Translations under genes and position numbers: made by a program
Shown: piece by piece, positions 91 through 8,612 of the stretch
Numbering within the stretch: position 1 is the stretch's first letter
Layout: the number at the start of each line of letters is the position of its first letter
Notes under the pieces: model-generated
What the model saw: the letters and a program-made list of their open reading frames with translations, nothing else
Databases searched by the model: none
Told to the model about the DNA's origin: nothing
IMG/VR virus record: IMGVR_UViG_2734482579_000011
Strand: one strand, 5' to 3'
Origin: a virus
Lineage: Duplodnaviria; Heunggongvirae; Uroviricota; Caudoviricetes
Length of the DNA stretch: 9,618 nucleotides

Positions 91-242
91 CCGCCACAGA
101 ACAATTATTGCTTTTGCCGTTGATGACAATAAAGTTTTTATCGCAGGCGTATACCACGGTGGGCAAATCTATGAAACCGATTTTTTATCCAGTGCACCGT
201 AAAACCCCCATCCTTCAGGGCGTGGCGGATATCAAACTTTGG

Positions 243-1325
243 TCATTTTCTCTGGCTGATCTTTACCGGATAACCATCCCGAAGATCAATTAAGTGCTCC
301 GGTTCAGAAGCAAACCATGCATAAGATCCCCACGCCAATTCTGGTATTGCCTTTTTAAAAGGCAGAGCACTTCTGTCCATAAATGCCGTAAGGAATGCAA
401 GATTTTTCTCGCTGAACCCAGCGTCAATAGCCAAATGAGTGAGAGTAACTTTTCGTTCCCTGTTTATAGGCCCATCTGTCGCAACTACTTCAGTGAAAAC
501 TACAAGCATGTCCGAACCCGTTCGGTCCTCTCCCAAATCAATCAAAATAATATCTGGAAGTGCTTTTGAGGCATCAATATTCAGCCCCAATGCTTTTGCC
601 AATACATCATCCTGAGCAACAACTTTATTCCCGGATTCAGACAACCAGAGCACAGTTGGATTCTTAAGAAAATTAGGAGCAAAAACTTCGATGACGGCCT
701 TAGCTATTGTACTTGACGGGCCCGGAGCTAAAGTTCTCTTCTCTCCATTTGGGAAAGTGACGACTACGGCATCAGCAGCAATCACTGCCCCTGATTTCAA
801 TAAACGCAACCTAGCAAGAGCGGCTTTGTTCAAATGATTTTCTTGCCAGGAACTTATTGCACTCAGCAGCGAATCTCCTTCAAGCCCGGCATCAAAGAGT
901 GCTGCAAAAGAGCGATTCAAACTGTAACGAGGACGAGAGGATGTGGTGGGTATACCTTTACGCTCAACAATTGCATTGCAAGGTATTAGGCCATTTTTTA
1001 TAGTTTCATCACGTATTGGCTCACGCGTATTTTCCGCATACCATGCATCAGCAGGCCTTATCTTTTGTTTAGAGAAAGTCATCTTTACCCAGCTTTCTCT
1101 GGACGCATCATCAGTAAGAGCAGCCTGCGAATCTCCCATACTTACAACCTGGCTGGGCCTTATCCATCGCCCCAGCCCCTCAACCGCACCAGCATAAAAC
1201 ATGACAAAAATTGTTTTTGCAGCTATTTCCCGAATTAAATATCCACGATTCTCAGTCCCTTCAGGGAAAATTAATTGTAATCTTTCCCGGATAACATTCA
1301 ATGGGGGAACAACAGGCAGATTCAT
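243..1325 (-). CDS. Putative type II restriction endonuclease (360 aa), partner of the upstream methyltransferase; possibly BsuBI/PstI-like, family unverified
   Basis: ATG at 1325..1323 overlaps the methyltransferase TGA (1324..1322) as ATGA, so the two are co-directional and translationally coupled. Contains LPDIILIDLGED...VVFTEVV, a possible degenerate PD-(D/E)XK core. Lower GC than the phage genes. Family is a recollection-based guess. Confidence 0.6.
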   Translation of the reverse strand: MNLPVVPPLNVIRERLQLIFPEGTENRGYLIREIAAKTIFVMFYAGAVEGLGRWIRPSQVVSMGDSQAALTDDASRESWVKMTFSKQKIRPADAWYAENTREPIRDETIKNGLIPCNAIVERKGIPTTSSRPRYSLNRSFAALFDAGLEGDSLLSAISSWQENHLNKAALARLRLLKSGAVIAADAVVVTFPNGEKRTLAPGPSSTIAKAVIEVFAPNFLKNPTVLWLSESGNKVVAQDDVLAKALGLNIDASKALPDIILIDLGEDRTGSDMLVVFTEVVATDGPINRERKVTLTHLAIDAGFSEKNLAFLTAFMDRSALPFKKAIPELAWGSYAWFASEPEHLIDLRDGYPVKISQRK

Positions 1326-3154
1326 GCAATCATCACTCCATAGAAACCAGCGATAGTTCTCTCAATAATCCGTCTGTGGACGCCAGCATCAATTAACGAT
1401 TGAATCTCCATCACCTGCTCCAGAGAAGGCAACGGGATTGAATTCAATTCATAGGCCGAAACAGCAACACTTCCGCTTATACACCTGAACGCCCGATCGA
1501 CAACATGCGAATTAAGTAGCATATCAATAACATCAGGGCGAACCGCAGAGAACAATCCGTTTGAATATACAATATTAATATGGTTTTCAACTACTACGCC
1601 ACCAGTTTCATCTATAAATCCCTGAGGTAAAATTGCCGCTAAAATCCTTCTGTCCTGTTCCTTCGATGTTGTCCGCTGAACAAGCACACATTCAGATTTT
1701 GTCACAAGGAAACCCTGTTGTGGGGTTATATCGATATAGGGAACATGATTTTTTCTGTCTGCACTAAAACGAAAACCAGCTGAAGTTATTGATTCCGCCC
1801 AGACTAATGGGTAGCTATTTTTTCCTTTCGTCGTACGCAACTGCGACTTAAATCGATTCCAGACTAACTGACCTGTAGAGACTGAGTATCCCAGATCAGC
1901 TAAACGCGTAGACATCTGTTTTAATACATTAAGAAAACAGGCATCATCTTTAACGCGTGGCAAAAGCCACGTTGCTCCACCTTTTTCTATATCAACATTA
2001 CCTATTTTCTCAATTTTTGCTTTGTTCAACCCCTTAGGGACAAGTGAGGATACCTGGGCCCGAACTTTATGTTCTCCCGCCTTGAATGCTGTCAACATTG
2101 TTTCCTGGAGAACATCGTCAAAGACCCCATCCCTGTCAGTGACGAAATCAAGGGCATACGGAGTAGTTTTTTCGGTCAAAAGGGTTCGCAGCGCGGTGAA
2201 ATACTGCCCACCAAGAAAAGAAGTTGGCGTAAGAAATGCAATAACTCCTGTTTTCTCTTTAACCATGCGAACAGCTAAGTCGGTGAACAATCCATATAGA
2301 TTTGCATGACCAAATAACGAACGAGAATATTTTTCTCTCGTTTTAATATCGAGAGTGACACGTCCGTAAGGCGGATTCCCTACCACAAGATCATAACCAG
2401 AAAATTTATCTTGCTGAAGCGCATCAGCAACAATAATTGTATCTTCAGGCAATCTACGTTTTACCTTTACACATAGTGGCATTAGTACAGATTCGAGCAA
2501 TACCAAACTCATCCAAGCCGCAAATGGATCGATCTCTATCCCCTTTAAACGACGACTGATTCTCCTCAACATCCATTCAGGGGAAGACCCCTTGTCTTTT
2601 TTTAACATTCGAATGGCTACTGGTGCCAAAAATGCACCGCCACCACACGCAGGATCAATAACCGATGCATGAGAAAAATCAACACCAGACTTTTCAGCCA
2701 GGTCCAAGAGACGCGCTACCAAAGGTGGGGGGGTATAGTAAGCCCCCAATTCCGAACGGTAAGCGGATGGCAGCATTACCGTATAAATTGACCCAATCAG
2801 ATATCCAGCGTCCTCCGCCGGAAATTGAGCAATAAGCTCACCTGTTCGTTCAGCGAGCTCGCGTGCATCACATGGAATGTCTTCTATGTAAACAGTGTGC
2901 GGTACTGCCCTCATTTTAATGCTGCTTTTTTGCTTTTTTGCAAGGGTATCCCAATATGCAGCTACGATGCTGAAGCAGTATGAGCGGGCATGCATCAACC
3001 TTGACTGCCCGGTTTTGTAATTGCCCGCATAACCTTTGGCCATGGCTTTACAAGTTTGATATCTTTCCAGATTAGAAAACTCATTATCTGTAAAAAAATC
3101 AAAATGTTGCACATTCATAATGTAAAATCCTAATGTATCAAACATGCGGGCCAT
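1322..3154 (-). CDS. Gamma-class N6-adenine DNA methyltransferase (610 aa), Eco57I/TaqI-like catalytic domain with a C-terminal target-recognition region
   Basis: Motif order in the translation: GAYYTPPPLVARLL (motif X), VIDPACGGGAFLAPV (motif I, AdoMet binding), VVGNPPYGR (motif IV, NPPY). About 330 aa follow as a presumptive TRD. Alternative in-frame ATGs at 3145 and 3118; the start is uncertain. Confidence 0.9.
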   Translation of the reverse strand: MARMFDTLGFYIMNVQHFDFFTDNEFSNLERYQTCKAMAKGYAGNYKTGQSRLMHARSYCFSIVAAYWDTLAKKQKSSIKMRAVPHTVYIEDIPCDARELAERTGELIAQFPAEDAGYLIGSIYTVMLPSAYRSELGAYYTPPPLVARLLDLAEKSGVDFSHASVIDPACGGGAFLAPVAIRMLKKDKGSSPEWMLRRISRRLKGIEIDPFAAWMSLVLLESVLMPLCVKVKRRLPEDTIIVADALQQDKFSGYDLVVGNPPYGRVTLDIKTREKYSRSLFGHANLYGLFTDLAVRMVKEKTGVIAFLTPTSFLGGQYFTALRTLLTEKTTPYALDFVTDRDGVFDDVLQETMLTAFKAGEHKVRAQVSSLVPKGLNKAKIEKIGNVDIEKGGATWLLPRVKDDACFLNVLKQMSTRLADLGYSVSTGQLVWNRFKSQLRTTKGKNSYPLVWAESITSAGFRFSADRKNHVPYIDITPQQGFLVTKSECVLVQRTTSKEQDRRILAAILPQGFIDETGGVVVENHINIVYSNGLFSAVRPDVIDMLLNSHVVDRAFRCISGSVAVSAYELNSIPLPSLEQVMEIQSLIDAGVHRRIIERTIAGFYGVMIA

Positions 3155-3368
3155 AACATCTCATGGTGGCGCATAGCAAACTGGCCCGAAGAATATCACG
3201 CACCAAGTCGATCTCATAACCCGTTATGACAATAAATCTTTGTAGCTGAACTCACTTGGTGATTTGTCAATCATTCCTGGCCTCCAGTTCGTCCTGAATC
3301 TCTTTATCGAGTTCACCGTATTTGTTAGTCCTCATCACTCACGACTTGACTTCCAGAAATAACCTTGA

Positions 3369-3725
3369 TTATTCGGGGCTATATTTTGTCACCCTGCGTA
3401 TCCGCGCTTTCGCATTACGCTCAATCTGGATTAGCTTTTCTATATTTTTTCGCCTTTCCCGCTCCTCCTGGCGCAAGAGCCTTACATCATCTGCCAGTCT
3501 GGTTTCTCTTTTCGCCACAGAGAGCATCCAGTCAAATGGCTCCACAACTGCACCGCAAATTTTACAGCGGACCTGACGCTCTTTTTCGTCAACCCGGACA
3601 GAAGCGTGATGGCAATATGGTCTTTCCGATGGCTCATAAAGAAAATTAACCTGATTACGAGGGTTATCCTCTTTTACCGGAAATAAAACAATATTGCTTA
3701 ACTCATCTTCTGGTTTTATTTCCAT
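3369..3725 (-). CDS. Hypothetical phage early protein (118 aa) with a putative zinc-ribbon (C-H-H...C-x2-C) and a basic, coiled-coil-like C-terminus
   Basis: ATG at 3725..3723 is preceded by a strong SD (minus strand AAGGAGAGGAGC then ATG). The track ORF extends to a GTG at 3782, but the internal ATG with SD is preferred. Cys/His cluster PYCHHASV...CKICGAV. Confidence 0.65.
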   Translation of the reverse strand: MEIKPEDELSNIVLFPVKEDNPRNQVNFLYEPSERPYCHHASVRVDEKERQVRCKICGAVVEPFDWMLSVAKRETRLADDVRLLRQEERERRKNIEKLIQIERNAKARIRRVTKYSPE

Positions 3726-3782
3726 GCTCCTCTCCTTTGATGCGAATGCCAGCGGTAATTGAAGCCTGATAGCTAATTTCAC

Positions 3783-4205
3783 TCACAGTACCGCCTCCTG
3801 AAAATCACCCTGATAGAAAGCCGGTACACGCTGCATAACTTCACTCTTCCGGCACTCGCGACAGATTATGTTCTGATGTCTGTCGTAGCGGCGTATTTCT
3901 CCGTCCGGTAATGACCAGATAAGGTCCGGATCAACCACAGATGGTTTCTTCAGCTTTGCCCTCGAGAGTTTTTTGCGGGCGTTTTGCCAGTCCTTACGAG
4001 CCTGTTCAGACGGGAATAACCCGTAGCCAGAGTTGTATACATCCCCACTGGCAACCAGCTCTCTGGCGAGAACGCTTATTAAATATCTTGTCGCCCCGGT
4101 TTTAGCTTCCAGTTGTCGTAACGTCTCGCGCCCACTCTGGCGTACGAGTTCAACAACCTGCCCCTTAATTTTTTCCCGCTCTTCCTGTGTAAATACTTTT
4201 GCCAT
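3783..4205 (-). CDS. Hypothetical phage early protein (140 aa), HTH-like N-terminus, CxxC near the C-terminus
   Basis: ATG at 4205..4203 (MAKVFTQEE...); the track ORF begins 5 codons upstream at a TTG. Ends ...NIICRECRKSEV.... Co-directional and tightly packed with flanking genes. Confidence 0.65.
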   Translation of the reverse strand: MAKVFTQEEREKIKGQVVELVRQSGRETLRQLEAKTGATRYLISVLARELVASGDVYNSGYGLFPSEQARKDWQNARKKLSRAKLKKPSVVDPDLIWSLPDGEIRRYDRHQNIICRECRKSEVMQRVPAFYQGDFQEAVL

Positions 4206-4220
4206 AAGCGCCCCCGGCAA

Positions 4221-4946
4221 TCACTTTTCCGACACAATACGACCGGAGGAATCGACAATCTGTCGAACAATATCCCGGTGCTTGTTCAGCTCCCGCAACG
4301 CGGCGCAGACACGCTCCCACTTCTGGACATGACTTTTCGCCCGACGCAGTTCGCGGTTTGCCATATGCAGCGATGGTAAAACCAGGTCATCCGCTTGCGT
4401 TTCGGTGAACGATGGCAACGACTGCACAATGTCCGCCACAGTTTCTGTTTTAATTTCTTCCTGTGTTGCAGCTTCCTGTACCGGTAACGCAACACCTGCT
4501 GGCTGAGGAAAGACTTTACCATCCGTTTCCGCTATGGATGCGGCTTTCGGCTCTGCCGGTAAATCAGCGCCCGGTATGCAGTACCGAAATTTACCGCCCT
4601 GATTCACGCGAATCAGACGCCCTTTGCTGATTGCCATGGCCAGCGATGAATTCGCCCGGCGGGAGGTAATCCCGAACATCAGTGCCAGCTCATCCGCCGT
4701 TTGTGGGCCATGTTGTTCAATCGCCTCAGTCAGCATTTGCGCTGTCACTTTCGGTACCGGTGACACTGGTTCACTTTCACCAGCCTGAATCAGCCACCAC
4801 ATCGAACCCTTGTTATCCGCTTCACCACGGCGCTTCAGTTTCCACAGTTCGTTGACCGCATCTTCACGGCTGATTCCAAGGCGGGACGCCACCACATGTG
4901 AAGAGGCTCTTTTCAGTGCTTTCAGTGCGTCAAATACAGTTTCCAT
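4221..4946 (-). CDS. Hypothetical phage protein (241 aa) with two predicted winged-helix-like segments; resembles DUF1627-type proteins found after replication genes in enterobacterial prophages (recollection)
   Basis: ATG at 4946..4944 with SD GGAGGA 7 nt upstream, 21 nt after the DnaC-like TAA stop. Similar segments ...[23 protein letters not shown]... and ...[25 protein letters not shown].... Confidence 0.7.
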
Positions 4947-4967
4947 TAAAACATCCTCCAACAAAAA

Positions 4968-5509
4968 TTACTTCACAACTCCCGGAAAGCTGACATTTGA
5001 ACGCCAGCTATCCCAGTTAAACGTCACCCACCGACAACCGTTCATGGTCATGCGGTCCATAATCCTCTCACCAAGAAGCGTGCTCATTGCGGCATGATTC
5101 AGGTTTGTTAACATCCCGACACTGCACAGTGATGCTGTCCGGCGATCAATTATCTGGTGCAATACCACCTGCTCGTTTTTCGTCTCCCGCTGAATGCCTA
5201 TTTCATCCAGGACCAGCAAATCAACCCCGCAAAGCTCCTGTAAAAATTTTTCACCGGATTTGCCGTTGTCGTAGCTGTCATGCAACACGCTCATGACATC
5301 AGACTCGGTGACGATAATCACGCTGCGCCCCTTCGCCATCAGCCGGTTACCCATCGCCGCTGCAAGGTGATTTTTCCCGGTGCCGGTTTTACCGCTGAAC
5401 ACAAAATTCGTGCACCCGGTCATCAGTTCGTCAGCTATGGATTTGGCCTGGCTCAGCGCGTATTTTTGCCCGTCGTTCTGCACCTGATAATTCGCAAACG
5501 AGCATTTGC
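4968..5509 (-). CDS. DnaC-like helicase loader / IstB-like AAA+ ATPase (phage replication protein), 5' end lost in the N gap
   Basis: Walker A FVFSGKTGTGKNHLAAA and Walker B DLLVLDEIG in the translation; the ORF is open up to the N run at 5510, so the true start lies in or beyond the gap. Confidence 0.85.
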
Positions 5510-5751
5510 NNNNNNNNNNNNNNNNNNNNNNNNNNNNNNNNNNNNNNNNNNNNNNNNNNNNNNNNNNNNNNNNNNNNNNNNNNNNNNNNNNNNNNNNNNN
5601 NNNNNNNNNNNNNNNNNNNNNNNNNNNNNNNNNNNNNNNNNNNNNNNNNNNNNNNNNNNNNNNNNNNNNNNNNNNNNNNNNNNNNNNNNNNNNNNNNNNN
5701 NNNNNNNNNNNNNNNNNNNNNNNNNNNNNNNNNNNNNNNNNNNNNNNNNNN
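5510..5751. other. Run of 242 N (assembly gap or masked sequence)
   Basis: Directly visible. It interrupts the junction between the initiator and the DnaC-like gene; true length and content unknown. Confidence 0.99.
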
Positions 5752-6739
5752 TTACCGGGAGCAACCAGGGGTTTTCAAAATTCCGGTCCGGCCCAAAAAA
5801 CGTCGTCGCTCGCTGAACAAATTCCGTTCCCGCTTTCCCGGTCGCCGCCAGGTATCTCGCGTAACGCCTCACACCATCCAGCATGGTCTCTGGTGGCACC
5901 CCCTCGCGCAATCTGGCCTTCCAGGCACTGAATGCGGATTTCTTCGGGTTTGCCCCGGCACGCAACGGGTATTCCCGCCAGACCTGTTCGAACACATCCG
6001 GATAATCCACTCGTCCCACAGGCTGCCCGGTGTTTTCCGGGGCTACCCGATCGGCTTCCCGCTGAATGGCGGAATCGGCTTCAGGCTGCTGCAGTTGGAG
6101 TGATTGCTCCGGCCTTGCGGTCATCACCTGCTGCACAGCGCCCGAATCGGCTTTCAGCGCATACGCTGAATCGGCTTCCGGTGTCGAGCCTGCTGGCTGA
6201 CCAGGATTGACGGTCTGAACATCCCCTGCCTGGTTCGTGGCGTTTTTTACGCCATGGACCATAGTGTTTTGATCTTCTTTATCTGTATCTTTATCTGTAT
6301 CTGTCGTGACTCGTCGTGACATGTGCGTGACATTTCGTGACGCGCCGTGACAATCGCCATTTTGTTCCCGCTTTCTTTCCCTCTCTCGCTGCGCCCTCTT
6401 GCGCTCTGCAGGAGATTTTGCGGTTTGCGAAATATTGCCGTTGTCCTCTTTAAGCACCTGGCGTTTTTCCCATCCAGTGATTAAATCACCATCAAGTACC
6501 CGCCCCTGCATCGTCTGCAAAATTGAATCAATTACCTCTTCTGTCACGTCGAGCGCACTTGCCAAATCTTCTGTCGTGACATCAATGTGACCTCGCGTGA
6601 CATTTCGTGACGCGCTCACCAGGAGGTGGATATACACTGCCATCACTGTTGCAATTGGCTGCCCTGACACCCTGGCAATTGTTCGCCACTTAGGGTCATT
6701 TGGCATGTCATGCCATAATCTGAGCCAGGCGTTAGCCAT
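5752..6739 (-). CDS. Phage replication initiation / replisome-organiser protein (O-like; YdaU-type context), 3' end lost in the N gap
   Basis: ATG at 6739..6737 with SD-like AGAGGTGA upstream (GTG alternative at 6745). Directly upstream of the DnaC-like gene, as in lambdoid replication modules. Acidic/TDKD linker and internal iterons. The track ORF's tail beyond the gap (to 5453) is a frame artefact. Confidence 0.7.
6277..6304. repeat. Tandem 12-bp repeat (CTTTATCTGTAT x2 plus partial) in an AT-rich stretch immediately beside the iterons
   Basis: Directly visible; encodes the TDKDTDKE acidic linker on the minus strand. It lies 3' of the iterons in the gene's direction, like the AT-rich region of lambda ori. 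Confidence 0.6.
6305..6351. repeat. Iteron-like array: five CGTGAC hexamers at 10-11 bp phasing inside the initiator gene (candidate phage ori)
   Basis: CGTGAC begins at 6305, 6315, 6326, 6336 and 6346. On the coding strand the hexamers fall in different reading frames, so this is a DNA-level periodicity and not a peptide repeat. Confidence 0.55.
6543..6615. repeat. Second iteron-like cluster (GTCACG/CGTGAC units at about 10 bp phasing) containing an exact 21-bp copy of part of the first array
   Basis: GTCACG at 6543; CGTGAC at 6575, 6596 and 6606; TGTGAC at 6586. The 21-mer GCGTGACATTTCGTGACGCGC occurs at 6325..6345 and again at 6595..6615. Confidence 0.5.
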
Positions 6740-6810
6740 ACTCACCTCTTCTGATACCGAATCTTTTTACTCACGAGTTGCCGGGAGCGATTCGATATGG
6801 CTATTGTCAG

Positions 6811-7236
6811 TCAATGTACTGCCACAGCATTTCCTGCCGGGCCACCACGGTTCATCTGATTGAAACCGGCGATTGCCACTGCGACAAAATCATCAGCGTC
6901 TCTCACCAGTCGTTCATGCGTCTCCACCAGTTCCCGAAAATAAGCTGAACTGTGGCTGCGCATTCGAGCCACCAGCGGAGGTGGCATTGCCCTTTCGATC
7001 GCAGGTAACAACGCCTGAATTTTTTCAACAGCGTCAGGGGTGTCTTTATCCAGCCAACGGAAAATCTTTTGGGTGTTGAGATAAAGCGTGTTGTGCTTGC
7101 TGTCGTTATGCAGAACCGGAAACGTCATTCCCAGTTCGAAATAAACCCTGGTTATTTCAGCTGCCGGAACTTTTTCACCGTCCGGATGCGCCCAGGCTTT
7201 CATCGCCATGCGGATGTGTTCATGCTTGATTTTCAT
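6811..7236 (-). CDS. ydaT: YdaT-like protein (141 aa), reported as a CII-like regulator in Rac/CP-933P-type prophages
   Basis: ATG at 7236..7234 overlaps the upstream gene's TGA (ATGA). Size and position immediately after the Cro-like gene match the ydaS-ydaT arrangement; homology is recollection-based. Confidence 0.55.
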   Translation of the reverse strand: MKIKHEHIRMAMKAWAHPDGEKVPAAEITRVYFELGMTFPVLHNDSKHNTLYLNTQKIFRWLDKDTPDAVEKIQALLPAIERAMPPPLVARMRSHSSAYFRELVETHERLVRDADDFVAVAIAGFNQMNRGGPAGNAVAVH

Positions 7237-7532: not shown

Positions 7533-7595
7533 AATAGCACTGTTATTTTTAAAAGTAAATAGTGATACTATTTCAAAGTGATTAGCAATCTTATT
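7533..7595. promoter_or_regulatory. OR-like operator cluster with divergent promoters between the cro-like and repressor genes
   Basis: Three 15-bp imperfect palindromes about 24 bp apart: AATAGCACTGTTATT (7533..7547), AATAGTGATACTATT (7558..7572), and weaker ATTAGCAATCTTATT (7581..7595). Candidate minus-strand promoter (-35 at 7554..7559, -10 at 7531..7536) and plus-strand promoter (-35 TTCAAA 7572..7577, -10 TAGAAT 7595..7600) overlap them. Confidence 0.55.
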
Positions 7596-7607
7596 AGAAT
7601 TGGATGT

Positions 7608-8108
7608 ATGAAAAGAAAATCATTGTCAGACACCGACCTCAACGCCGCCAGAAGACTGAAAGAAATCTGGATGGCAAAGAAATCTCAGTTGGGATTGACT
7701 CAGGAACGTGCGGCGGAAATTATGGGGTTTTCAACACAAGGGGCGGTAAGTCACTACCTAAATGGTCAAACCCCACTAAACCTTGAGGCTGTTCTAAAGT
7801 TTGCTGGCTTACTGAAAGTTCCCCCTGAGTCAATCAGGCCAGACATGGTAGATTTGCTGCAAATTGCAAGGATGTATTGTCGAGAACCACAGCAAGATAA
7901 CATAGTCGCATTACCAGCAGACACAGAACAAACAGAGGATGAACTACCGTTTGCCGTAGAGCCGATGGAACGAGATTTAATCCATACGTTCAGAGCTTTT
8001 CCGAAAGAAGATCAAGAACACATGCTTCAGGAGATGAAAGATAAAAAAGAATCAATGGATCGTACGGTTGCGCGGTGGTTAGCTGCACAAAAAGGCCGTC
8101 GCGCCTAA
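7608..8108 (+). CDS. paaR: CI-like HTH repressor without a peptidase domain (166 aa); probable PaaR-type regulator of the downstream toxin-antitoxin pair and candidate prophage immunity repressor
   Basis: HTH segment LGLTQERAAEIMGFSTQGAVSHYLNGQTP; ATG at 7608 (the track ORF starts at a GTG at 7578). First gene of a three-gene plus-strand operon; symbol assigned by recollection of the CP-933P paaR2-paaA2-parE2 locus. Confidence 0.7.
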   Translation: MKRKSLSDTDLNAARRLKEIWMAKKSQLGLTQERAAEIMGFSTQGAVSHYLNGQTPLNLEAVLKFAGLLKVPPESIRPDMVDLLQIARMYCREPQQDNIVALPADTEQTEDELPFAVEPMERDLIHTFRAFPKEDQEHMLQEMKDKKESMDRTVARWLAAQKGRRA

Positions 8109-8127
8109 ATCAGAGGAGATATGTAAA

Positions 8128-8322
8128 ATGAGTACAGTCCTTTCCCCAATGGTTTCAGAATTTGAGACAGTTGAGCAAGAAAATAGTTACAACGAATGGC
8201 TGCGGGCCAAAGTAGCAGCAAGCCTCGCGGATCCCCGCCCGGCGATTCCGCATGATGAGGTAATGGCGGAAATGGAACAAATTATTGCCCAAATTGCTGC
8301 TGCAACTCACAGAGGTGAATAA
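8128..8322 (+). CDS. paaA: Small antitoxin (64 aa) of a ParE-family toxin-antitoxin pair, PaaA-like
   Basis: SD AGGAGA 9 nt upstream; its TAA stop overlaps the toxin ATG (TAATG); 19-bp gap after the repressor gene implies co-transcription. Confidence 0.7.
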   Translation: MSTVLSPMVSEFETVEQENSYNEWLRAKVAASLADPRPAIPHDEVMAEMEQIIAQIAAATHRGE

Positions 8323-8612
8323 TGTTACCCGTTTTATGGCTACCATCTGCTCGTGATGATTTGCGCCAGATCGTAGCCTACATAGCTAAAGAAAATCCCG
8401 CGGCAGCACGCAGAATGAAAATTCGAATTGAAACATCCGTTTTGCCGCTCACAGAGCATCCTTACCTGTATCCTCCAAGCGAGCGAGTTCTTGGTCTTCG
8501 TGAAATTGTAACTCATCCTAACTACATCATCCTTTACCGAGTAACAGCATCAAGCATAGAAGTAGTAAATATTGTGCATTCTCGAAGACAGTATCCAGGC
8601 AAAAACAGTTAA
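8322..8612 (+). CDS. parE: ParE/RelE-superfamily toxin (96 aa)
   Basis: C-terminal signature ...NYIILYRVTASSIEVVNIVHSRRQ typical of ParE/RelE toxins; overlaps the antitoxin stop by 1 nt; an intrinsic terminator follows. Confidence 0.8.
   Translation: MLPVLWLPSARDDLRQIVAYIAKENPAAARRMKIRIETSVLPLTEHPYLYPPSERVLGLREIVTHPNYIILYRVTASSIEVVNIVHSRRQYPGKNS

Follow-up and report, generated by a model that had tools for sequence, protein, structure and literature searches.

The window analysed here is the whole 9,618-nucleotide stretch of the Caudoviricetes virus record IMGVR_UViG_2734482579_000011, and the subject is a pair of its genes encoding an N6-adenine methyltransferase (M) and a putative restriction endonuclease (R). 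The pair very probably represents an intact two-gene type II restriction-modification (RM) system, consisting of M followed by an R of the PstI/BsuBI family and carried as AT-rich cargo of a temperate lambdoid phage in Shigella sonnei. An earlier note, made from the letters of the window, had placed both genes at 243–3154; these coordinates are exact, and both genes lie on the minus strand. The features of the cassette are as follows (aa, amino acids; SAM, S-adenosylmethionine).

243–1325, minus strand: endonuclease gene R, 360 aa, BsuBI/PstI (SdaI) family according to Pfam, PADLOC and the SdaI match
279–764, minus strand: C-terminal catalytic domain of R, Pfam BsuBI_PstI_RE (PF06616), aa 188–349
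483–491, 552–557 and 624–626, minus strand: residues E279-x-V281, P257-D258 and K234 of R, respectively, invariant in alignments
810–1298, minus strand: N-terminal winged-helix DNA-binding domain of R, Pfam BsuBI_PstI_RE_N (PF17728), aa 10–172
1322–1325, minus strand: ATGA overlap of the M stop (TGA, 1324–1322) and the R start (ATG, 1325–1323)
1322–3154, minus strand: methyltransferase gene M, gamma-class N6-adenine, 610 aa from the ATG at 3154
2366–2377, minus strand: catalytic motif IV of M, NPPY, aa 260–263
2630–2656, minus strand: motif I of M, DPACGGGAF, SAM-binding loop, aa 167–175
2729–2746, minus strand: motif X of M, GAYYTP, aa 137–142
3155–3368, minus strand: upstream spacer belonging to the cassette, 214 bp

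Domain structure of the endonuclease and the methyltransferase

By its sequence and its modelled fold, R is a member of the BsuBI/PstI/SdaI family of type II restriction endonucleases. Both Pfam domains of this family were found in R, namely, PF17728 (E 1.2e-30, 106.6 bits against a cut-off of 27) and PF06616 (E 9.3e-45, 152 bits against a cut-off of 27), and the PADLOC profile REase_II PDLC03589 matches the protein over its full length (426 bits, residues 3–351 on profile positions 3–350). The helix motif YA..(S/T)RE..R, at aa 96–105 of R, is common to SdaI and to R.EcoGIII, the endonuclease of the EcoGIII system of Stx2-converting phages (Stx, Shiga toxin). Among 25 members of the subfamily, residues P257-D258, E279-x-V281, K234, G285 and R291 do not vary, and P286 is almost fully conserved (at least 90%); all of these catalytic-core residues, including P286, are invariant in an alignment of 19 sequences with the R.EcoGIII type. 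The lysine following E-x in the canonical PD-(D/E)XK motif is missing from R, as it is from R.EcoGIII, which fits the relocated (migrated) lysine reported for the SdaI subfamily of PD-(D/E)XK nucleases (PMC2441816).

The SdaI chain 2ixs matches R by sequence (E 1.8e-16). A structure model of R was built with AlphaFold2 on 25 homologs, and a Foldseek search of this model against the PDB gave 2ixs_A (SdaI) with E 2e-14 and probability 1.00, the next match having E 0.07. The global template modelling (TM) score of the model to SdaI is only 0.39–0.44, because the orientation of the domains differs and the model is of moderate quality.

The sequence of M is that of a gamma-class N6-methyladenine (m6A) methyltransferase, a stand-alone enzyme with its own target-recognition region. 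Motifs X, I and IV follow one another in this order, with the target-recognition region in the C-terminal part, which is the gamma-class arrangement. Pfam matches are represented by Eco57I (1.7e-13) and N6_Mtase (2.1e-9); the PADLOC profile MTase_II PDLC03338 covers M end to end (996 bits, residues 7–608 on profile positions 2–602); M.TaqI is the best PDB sequence match and the closest solved relative. The target-recognition region occupies the C-terminal half, approximately aa 340–600, and is homologous to that of M.EcoGIII and to those of A-methyltransferases of the Alw26I/Eco31I/Esp3I type; residues 285–588 match the part of TIGR02987 containing the target-recognition domain, and residues 248–584 align with M.EcoGIII.

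A gamma-class N6-adenine methyltransferase with motifs X-I-IV had been claimed in the earlier note, and the motif order and the Pfam matches agree with this. The endonuclease had been described there as possibly PstI/BsuBI-like, an assignment now borne out by Pfam, PADLOC and the sequence and fold matches to SdaI. The Pfam search proposed for both proteins was run and detected Eco57I and N6_Mtase in M and both BsuBI/PstI domains in R, and the nuclease fold and homology on which the claim for the 360-aa protein had been made to depend are present (Pfam, SdaI fold).

Gene layout, conservation and relationship to known systems

The junction of M and R reads GCATGAAT (also given as ...GGAGTGATGATTGCATGAATCTG...), with an overlap of 4 bases, so that the ATGA overlap claimed earlier is confirmed. 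The sequence GGAG is located at 1336–1339, 10 nt 5' of the R start; both the overlap and GGAG are kept in the relatives from Kluyvera, Citrobacter and Serratia. The alternative M start Met13 (ATG at 3118, product of 598 aa) is preceded by AGGA, and gene callers place the M start there in the relatives from Kluyvera and Serratia and in one of two Citrobacter assemblies; for these reasons, the M product is more likely the protein of 598 aa from Met13 than that of 610 aa.

No open reading frame for a controller (C-protein) gene was found between or beside M and R, the spacers being 214 bp upstream and about 40 bp downstream, and the genes 5' of the cassette differ in every relative (Kluyvera, Citrobacter, Serratia). 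Such short spacers and variable upstream neighbours indicate that a controller gene is absent from the cassette, in line with the earlier claim.

Within the upstream spacer, the proximal 110–150 nt recur in conserved form in the Kluyvera and Citrobacter cassettes; this part accompanies the cassette in the lambdoid copies. A candidate extended −10 element, TGaTATTCT at 3190–3198, was found by eye and is identical in the three lambdoid copies; as a consensus match it is a lead to a possible promoter. A perfect 14-base palindrome, CATAAC GG GTTATG, is located in the leader at 3215–3228, some 17 nt ahead of the candidate −10. The Kluyvera copy has it unchanged and the Citrobacter copy in part, and chance alone would yield about one palindrome of this size per 300 bases. 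Inverted repeats of at least 10 bases were not found in the leader. The terminator consensus scan downstream of R gave no match, and the RNA fold of the spacer between R and parE is no better than that of shuffled sequences (z = 0.29).

Scanning of one genome per species yielded 80 loci with this type of R, belonging to Gamma-, Beta- and Alphaproteobacteria, Syntrophomonadaceae, Acidobacteriota, Planctomycetes and others. In about 76 of the 80 loci, a homolog of M ends within about 50 nt 5' of R on the same strand. The ratio of nonsynonymous to synonymous substitution rates (dN/dS) is 0.055–0.062 for both M and R in comparisons with the copies from Kluyvera and Citrobacter, synonymous sites being nearly saturated, and points to strong purifying selection on both genes. 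The earlier note had contrasted the co-directional order of M and R with the divergent arrangement of PstI. The contrast itself holds, but the layout is no notable departure, being the rule in the subfamily and also the layout of EcoGIII.

Two loci of the set, L023:8410-9987 of a betaproteobacterial metagenome-assembled genome (MAG) and L025:8407-9942 of a Desulfurivibrio MAG, contain an R of the subfamily (56–60% identity) paired with a different M of 511–525 aa, which has about 27% identity to the M of the window and 31–32% to M.EcoGIII; their sequences suggest replacement of the partner within the family. This replacement was considered as a clue to the target and set aside as uninformative, the identity to M.EcoGIII being only 31–32%. 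In locus L040:7007-9957 of a Paracoccaceae MAG, the M homolog is present in two pieces about 1.1 kb apart beside an intact R, which may reflect an insertion into the methyltransferase gene.

The closest parallel in organization is the EcoGIII system of Stx2-converting phages, e.g., TL-2011c, and of E. coli O104:H4 C227-11. Like the pair in the window, this system belongs to a temperate lambdoid phage; in TL-2011c, its gamma-class m6A M is followed in the same direction by a BsuBI/PstI-family R, the two genes overlap by 4 bases, and a controller gene is absent. A PstI isoschizomer carried by a phage is thus already known with the co-directional overlapping layout. At 459 and 317 aa, the EcoGIII proteins are shorter than those of the window, and they are distant in sequence: R has about 27% identity to R.EcoGIII over 75% of its length, and M has 26% identity to M.EcoGIII over 355 aa, including the recognition region. 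EcoGIII is located directly downstream of cI, whereas the cassette of the window occupies a nin-type slot. PADLOC also places the two systems in separate families, PDLC03227 (M) and PDLC03420 (R) for EcoGIII and PDLC03338 and PDLC03589 for the window pair. For both M proteins and for the R of the window, the family of the other system is the second-best match; for R.EcoGIII, the family of the window R ranks fourth, behind the fused PDLC03359 and PDLC03412. These mutual rankings suggest that the window pair is a sister branch of the EcoGIII/PstI type, in which M and R would have diverged together. EcoGIII is described as methylating and cleaving CTGCAG and as protecting against lambda-like phages (PMC6602927, PMC3893438, both citing Fang et al. 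2012), and DNA cutting by the R.EcoGIII type is described there as shown experimentally (PMC3893438).

PstI of Providencia stuartii and BsuBI of Bacillus subtilis share with the window pair the endonuclease family, the two-domain build and a gamma-class adenine methyltransferase as the partner; they are the prototypes of PF06616 and PF17728, to which the R of the window is related at the family level only. The PstI genes are reportedly transcribed divergently (Walder et al. 1984, cited in PMC4081073), whereas the genes of the window are co-directional and overlap. SdaI (PDB 2ixs) is the only solved relative of R and, like R, combines an N-terminal winged-helix recognition domain with a C-terminal PD-(D/E)XK variant with the relocated lysine; the motifs YA..SRE..R and PD...E-x-V...GP are common to both. 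SdaI differs from the R of the window in its length of 323 aa and has 22% identity to it in the fold alignment; its 8-bp target is CCTGCAGG.

The YenI enzyme of Yersinia enterocolitica, recognizing CTGCAG, has the same modules as the window pair, an Eco57I-like gamma methyltransferase and a PstI-like nuclease (PMC10742451), but as one fused polypeptide in place of two genes. The fused PADLOC model PDLC03359 (840 aa) gives 94 and 48 bits on the proteins of the window, compared to 444 and 470 on the EcoGIII pair; judging from the fused build of 840 aa and the strong matches to both M and R of EcoGIII, this model presumably represents YenI.

Prophage context, distribution and neighbouring genes

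At least 1000 contigs, named from Shigella sonnei, encode exactly the two proteins of the cassette (accessions WP_001053102.1 and WP_000113425.1). In RefSeq, R is labelled 'BsuBI/PstI family type II restriction endonuclease' and M 'N-6 DNA methylase / HsdM family methyltransferase'; the annotation of the cassette in public databases is already correct, and the cassette is a member of a known family in a known kind of cargo slot. Of 5426 complete E. coli genomes, two contain the cassette, with 99.3–99.9% identity. In one of them, E. coli FDAARGOS_943, the cassette lies in the 99.9%-identical lambdoid prophage integrated at potC, in the order cI/cro, ydaT, O-like, dnaC-like, DUF977, hypothetical, M, R, parDE (opposite strand), DUF968, rusA, Q, tRNAs and lysis genes. 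The slot is located between the replication genes and DUF968-rusA-Q, beside the convergent parDE pair.

The genes upstream of the cassette (those for a 137-aa protein, DUF977 and DUF1627) were found in 4278 of the 5426 E. coli genomes, and homology to these prophages lacking the RM genes breaks off at 3365–3383 of the window. Two related Rac-like prophages contain genes for DUF7167, ead/Ea22, DUF551 and hokD in the slot instead of M and R. All of the closest relatives of R, with 89%, 86% and 75% identity, are prophage-borne; those from Kluyvera and Citrobacter occupy the same slot of lambdoid prophages, and in the P2-like prophage of Serratia the copy is flanked by gpA and the portal gene. No match to the cassette was obtained by megablast among 50,697 phage records, and the distant EcoGIII type was reached only in a protein-level search. 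These sequence comparisons support the view of the M–R pair as horizontally mobile cargo in a variable prophage slot.

In this context, two claims of the earlier note stand: the location downstream of the replication genes, where lambdoid phages carry nin-region cargo, agrees with the gene order in the FDAARGOS_943 prophage, and horizontal acquisition agrees with the variable slot, the occurrence in only two of the 5426 genomes and the prophage-borne relatives. A third, that the pair is AT-richer than the adjacent phage genes, holds relative to the replication genes. The GC content of the cassette is 43.6% (0.36–0.37 at third codon positions, GC3), compared to 51–54.5% for the replication genes at 3783–7236, and related cassettes have 41–43% GC in flanks of 50–55%. 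However, the adjacent gene for the 137-aa protein, the immunity region and the toxin–antitoxin region of the window are also at 44–47% GC, so low GC content alone does not mark out the cassette.

The 137-aa protein, encoded at 3369–3782 directly 5' of the cassette, matches a TFIIB-type zinc ribbon weakly, with E 2e-4, which is under the Pfam cut-off; in RefSeq it is a shorter hypothetical protein of 118 aa, and it is part of the conserved prophage backbone and not of the cassette. The DUF1627 gene (4221–4964) is absent from the otherwise 99% identical FDAARGOS_943 prophage, the homology passing directly from 4061 to 4965; this difference indicates mosaicism of the replication module between the two hosts. 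At 5510–5751, 242 consecutive N break the junction of the replication-organiser and DnaC-like genes, and the open reading frames listed across it (5453–6745 and 4968–5483) are partly artefactual.

On the other side of the cassette, one further feature was annotated.

91–202, plus strand: 3' remnant of parE, the convergent toxin gene found beside the cassette in the intact E. coli prophage

Positions 1–90 of the window are the terminal 90 bases of the insertion sequence (IS) IS1, 100% identical to thousands of plasmid copies of the IS1 family, and homology to the intact E. coli prophage begins at base 91. Thus, parE was cut by IS1, which left its last approximately 36 codons. Possibly, the window is a contig assembled from short reads that ends at IS copies.

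A second toxin–antitoxin pair is represented by a PaaA2-type antitoxin at 8128–8322 (Pfam PaaA2, 3e-23) and a ParE toxin at 8322–8612 (1.8e-17), overlapping by 1 base and preceded by a 176-aa HTH_3 regulator at 7578–8108. We take the region 7578–8612 to resemble paaR2-paaA2-parE2, a module of three genes known from E. coli O157 prophages; accordingly, the 'cI-like' gene may be the regulator of a paaA2-parE2 module and not the phage repressor.

Proposed function, target specificity and alternative explanations

As a type II RM system, the cassette would act as follows. M would transfer a methyl group from SAM to N6 of adenine in a short, probably palindromic target on host and prophage DNA; the N-terminal winged-helix domain of R would read the sequence, its C-terminal PD-(D/E)XK-variant domain would cut the same target when unmethylated, and incoming unmethylated phage or plasmid DNA would be cleaved. 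The position of R downstream of M, the ATGA overlap and the distant GGAG suggest that R synthesis is probably coupled to M translation: R would be translated by ribosomes finishing M, and its synthesis would depend on, and lag behind, that of M. In a newly entered cell, R would appear late and in limited amounts, so that methylation could come first without the need for a controller protein. A promoter within the conserved leader would drive expression in the lysogen. Should the prophage be lost, the chromosome would be exposed to residual R. This scheme draws on what is established for type II RM systems in general and on the experimentally studied EcoGIII (PMC6602927, PMC3893438); activity of both enzymes is an inference.

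The SdaI target, CCTGCAGG, has a CTGCAG core. The same core is reported for PstI and SbfI (PMC4081073), for YenI (PMC10742451) and for EcoGIII (PMC6602927). Since all characterized family members named in these sources have this core, CTGCAG or a relative with the same core is the most likely target by analogy; for CTGCAG itself, the chances are roughly even. As a PstI-like enzyme, R would be expected to leave 3' overhangs of four bases on cutting within the site. In the 2.9-kb cassette, four ATGCAT sites are present (317, 1043, 2665, 2990), with one elsewhere in the window, and the two CTGCAG sites of the window (6089 and 6406) both lie outside the cassette; all of these counts are too small for interpretation.

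A number of results weigh against an active RM system with a PstI-type target. The model of R is of moderate quality (predicted local distance difference test, pLDDT, 76.8; predicted TM-score, pTM, 0.49). The sigma-70 promoter consensus scan upstream of M gave no match, which bears on expression in the lysogen. The residues following the conserved helix arginine are R-D-E-T in the R of the window, invariant in the subfamily, compared to R-K-K-T in SdaI and R-R-Q-S in EcoGIII. Site avoidance was estimated for palindromic hexamers against a fourth-order Markov expectation, with no matched control genomes lacking the system: in 1.29 Mb of host DNA flanking the 80 systems, CTGCAG has an observed-to-expected ratio (O/E) of 0.75 and ranks 19 among 64 palindromes, with no preferential depletion, and inside 70 cassettes its O/E is 0.90, rank 55, with no depletion, no control set being included for either. 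In the searchable literature (RefSeq accessions, S. sonnei methylomes, the Burkholderia cepacia complex methylome and the supplements of Blow et al. 2016), no experiment or methylome for the subfamily was found.

The most under-represented palindromes in this analysis are CTCGAG and CAGCTG, with O/E of 0.57 and 0.61 in the flanks and 0.43 and 0.43 in the cassettes, where AGATCT joins them; with no control set, the depletion of hexamers is treated as general palindrome avoidance. Neither CTGCAG nor another plausible target stood out in the analysis.

The acidic R-D-E-T, in place of the basic or polar residues of SdaI and EcoGIII, indicates that the target may differ from CTGCAG. That the sister branch reads another target, i.e., represents a new specificity on a known scaffold, and at the same time forms an active lineage-wide barrier of S. 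sonnei almost absent from E. coli, is a possible reading, though less likely than not.

The cassette might also be mainly an addiction module, stabilizing the prophage or the cargo slot alongside parDE by post-segregational killing. In favour of this, the parDE pair adjoins the cassette in the intact E. coli prophage and hokD occupies the same slot of related prophages, and M and R are intact although S. sonnei prophages decay under IS1 insertion; type II RM systems, as reported by Kobayashi and colleagues, can cause post-segregational killing. However, addiction does not exclude defence, the same biochemistry serving both, and the best-studied phage-borne relative, EcoGIII, was shown to restrict lambda-like phages (PMC6602927). 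As the main role, addiction is rather unlikely. Much less probable is an inactive R in S. sonnei, with M acting as a solitary epigenetic methyltransferase that affects gene expression. Methylation by M.EcoGIII is reported to alter the expression of many genes (PMC6602927), and S. sonnei gathers pseudogenes and IS insertions, with the neighbouring parE cut by IS1; but R is of full length relative to the family profile, every invariant residue of the family is kept, its dN/dS is as low as that of M, and the identical 360-aa protein is present on the at least 1000 contigs mentioned above.

Assignment of M to another methylation system (Eco57I-like type IIG, type I HsdM, BREX PglX or MADS), with the PstI-like protein as an unrelated neighbour, is extremely improbable. 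It draws on the Pfam name Eco57I, the RefSeq label 'HsdM family' and partial matches of low score to PglX and MAD2 in NCBIfam and PADLOC; these matches cover the shared catalytic domain alone and fall far below the cut-offs. A type IIG enzyme was rejected, since M has no fused nuclease domain and the PADLOC IIG models match the catalytic core alone (E 3e-12 or weaker); BREX PglX and MADS were rejected at 21–37 NCBIfam bits against cut-offs of 400–900 (e.g., 37 bits against 900); type I HsdM was rejected because the match is confined to the core and neither HsdS nor HsdR is adjacent. Genes for HsdS, HsdR, PglZ and BrxC are absent from the vicinity of M in both the window and the E. coli prophage. 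Moreover, M and R are linked in about 76 of the 80 loci across phyla and evolve at the same rate. The intact two-gene type II RM system therefore remains the preferred reading.

Prophage RM systems, PstI-like enzymes on Stx phages and controller-less overlapping M–R operons are all documented, and no new mechanism is added here; the cassette further illustrates how lambdoid and P2-like temperate phages shift one and the same defence system from cargo slot to cargo slot. The finding matters for practical and not for conceptual reasons. An active system would provide nearly all S. sonnei isolates with a restriction barrier that is almost never found in E. coli (two of the 5426 genomes), which would bear on plasmid transfer between S. 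sonnei and E. coli, on the genetic manipulation of S. sonnei and on the choice of therapeutic phages and of the hosts for their propagation. If the target is other than CTGCAG, this barrier would shape which plasmids and phages enter S. sonnei.

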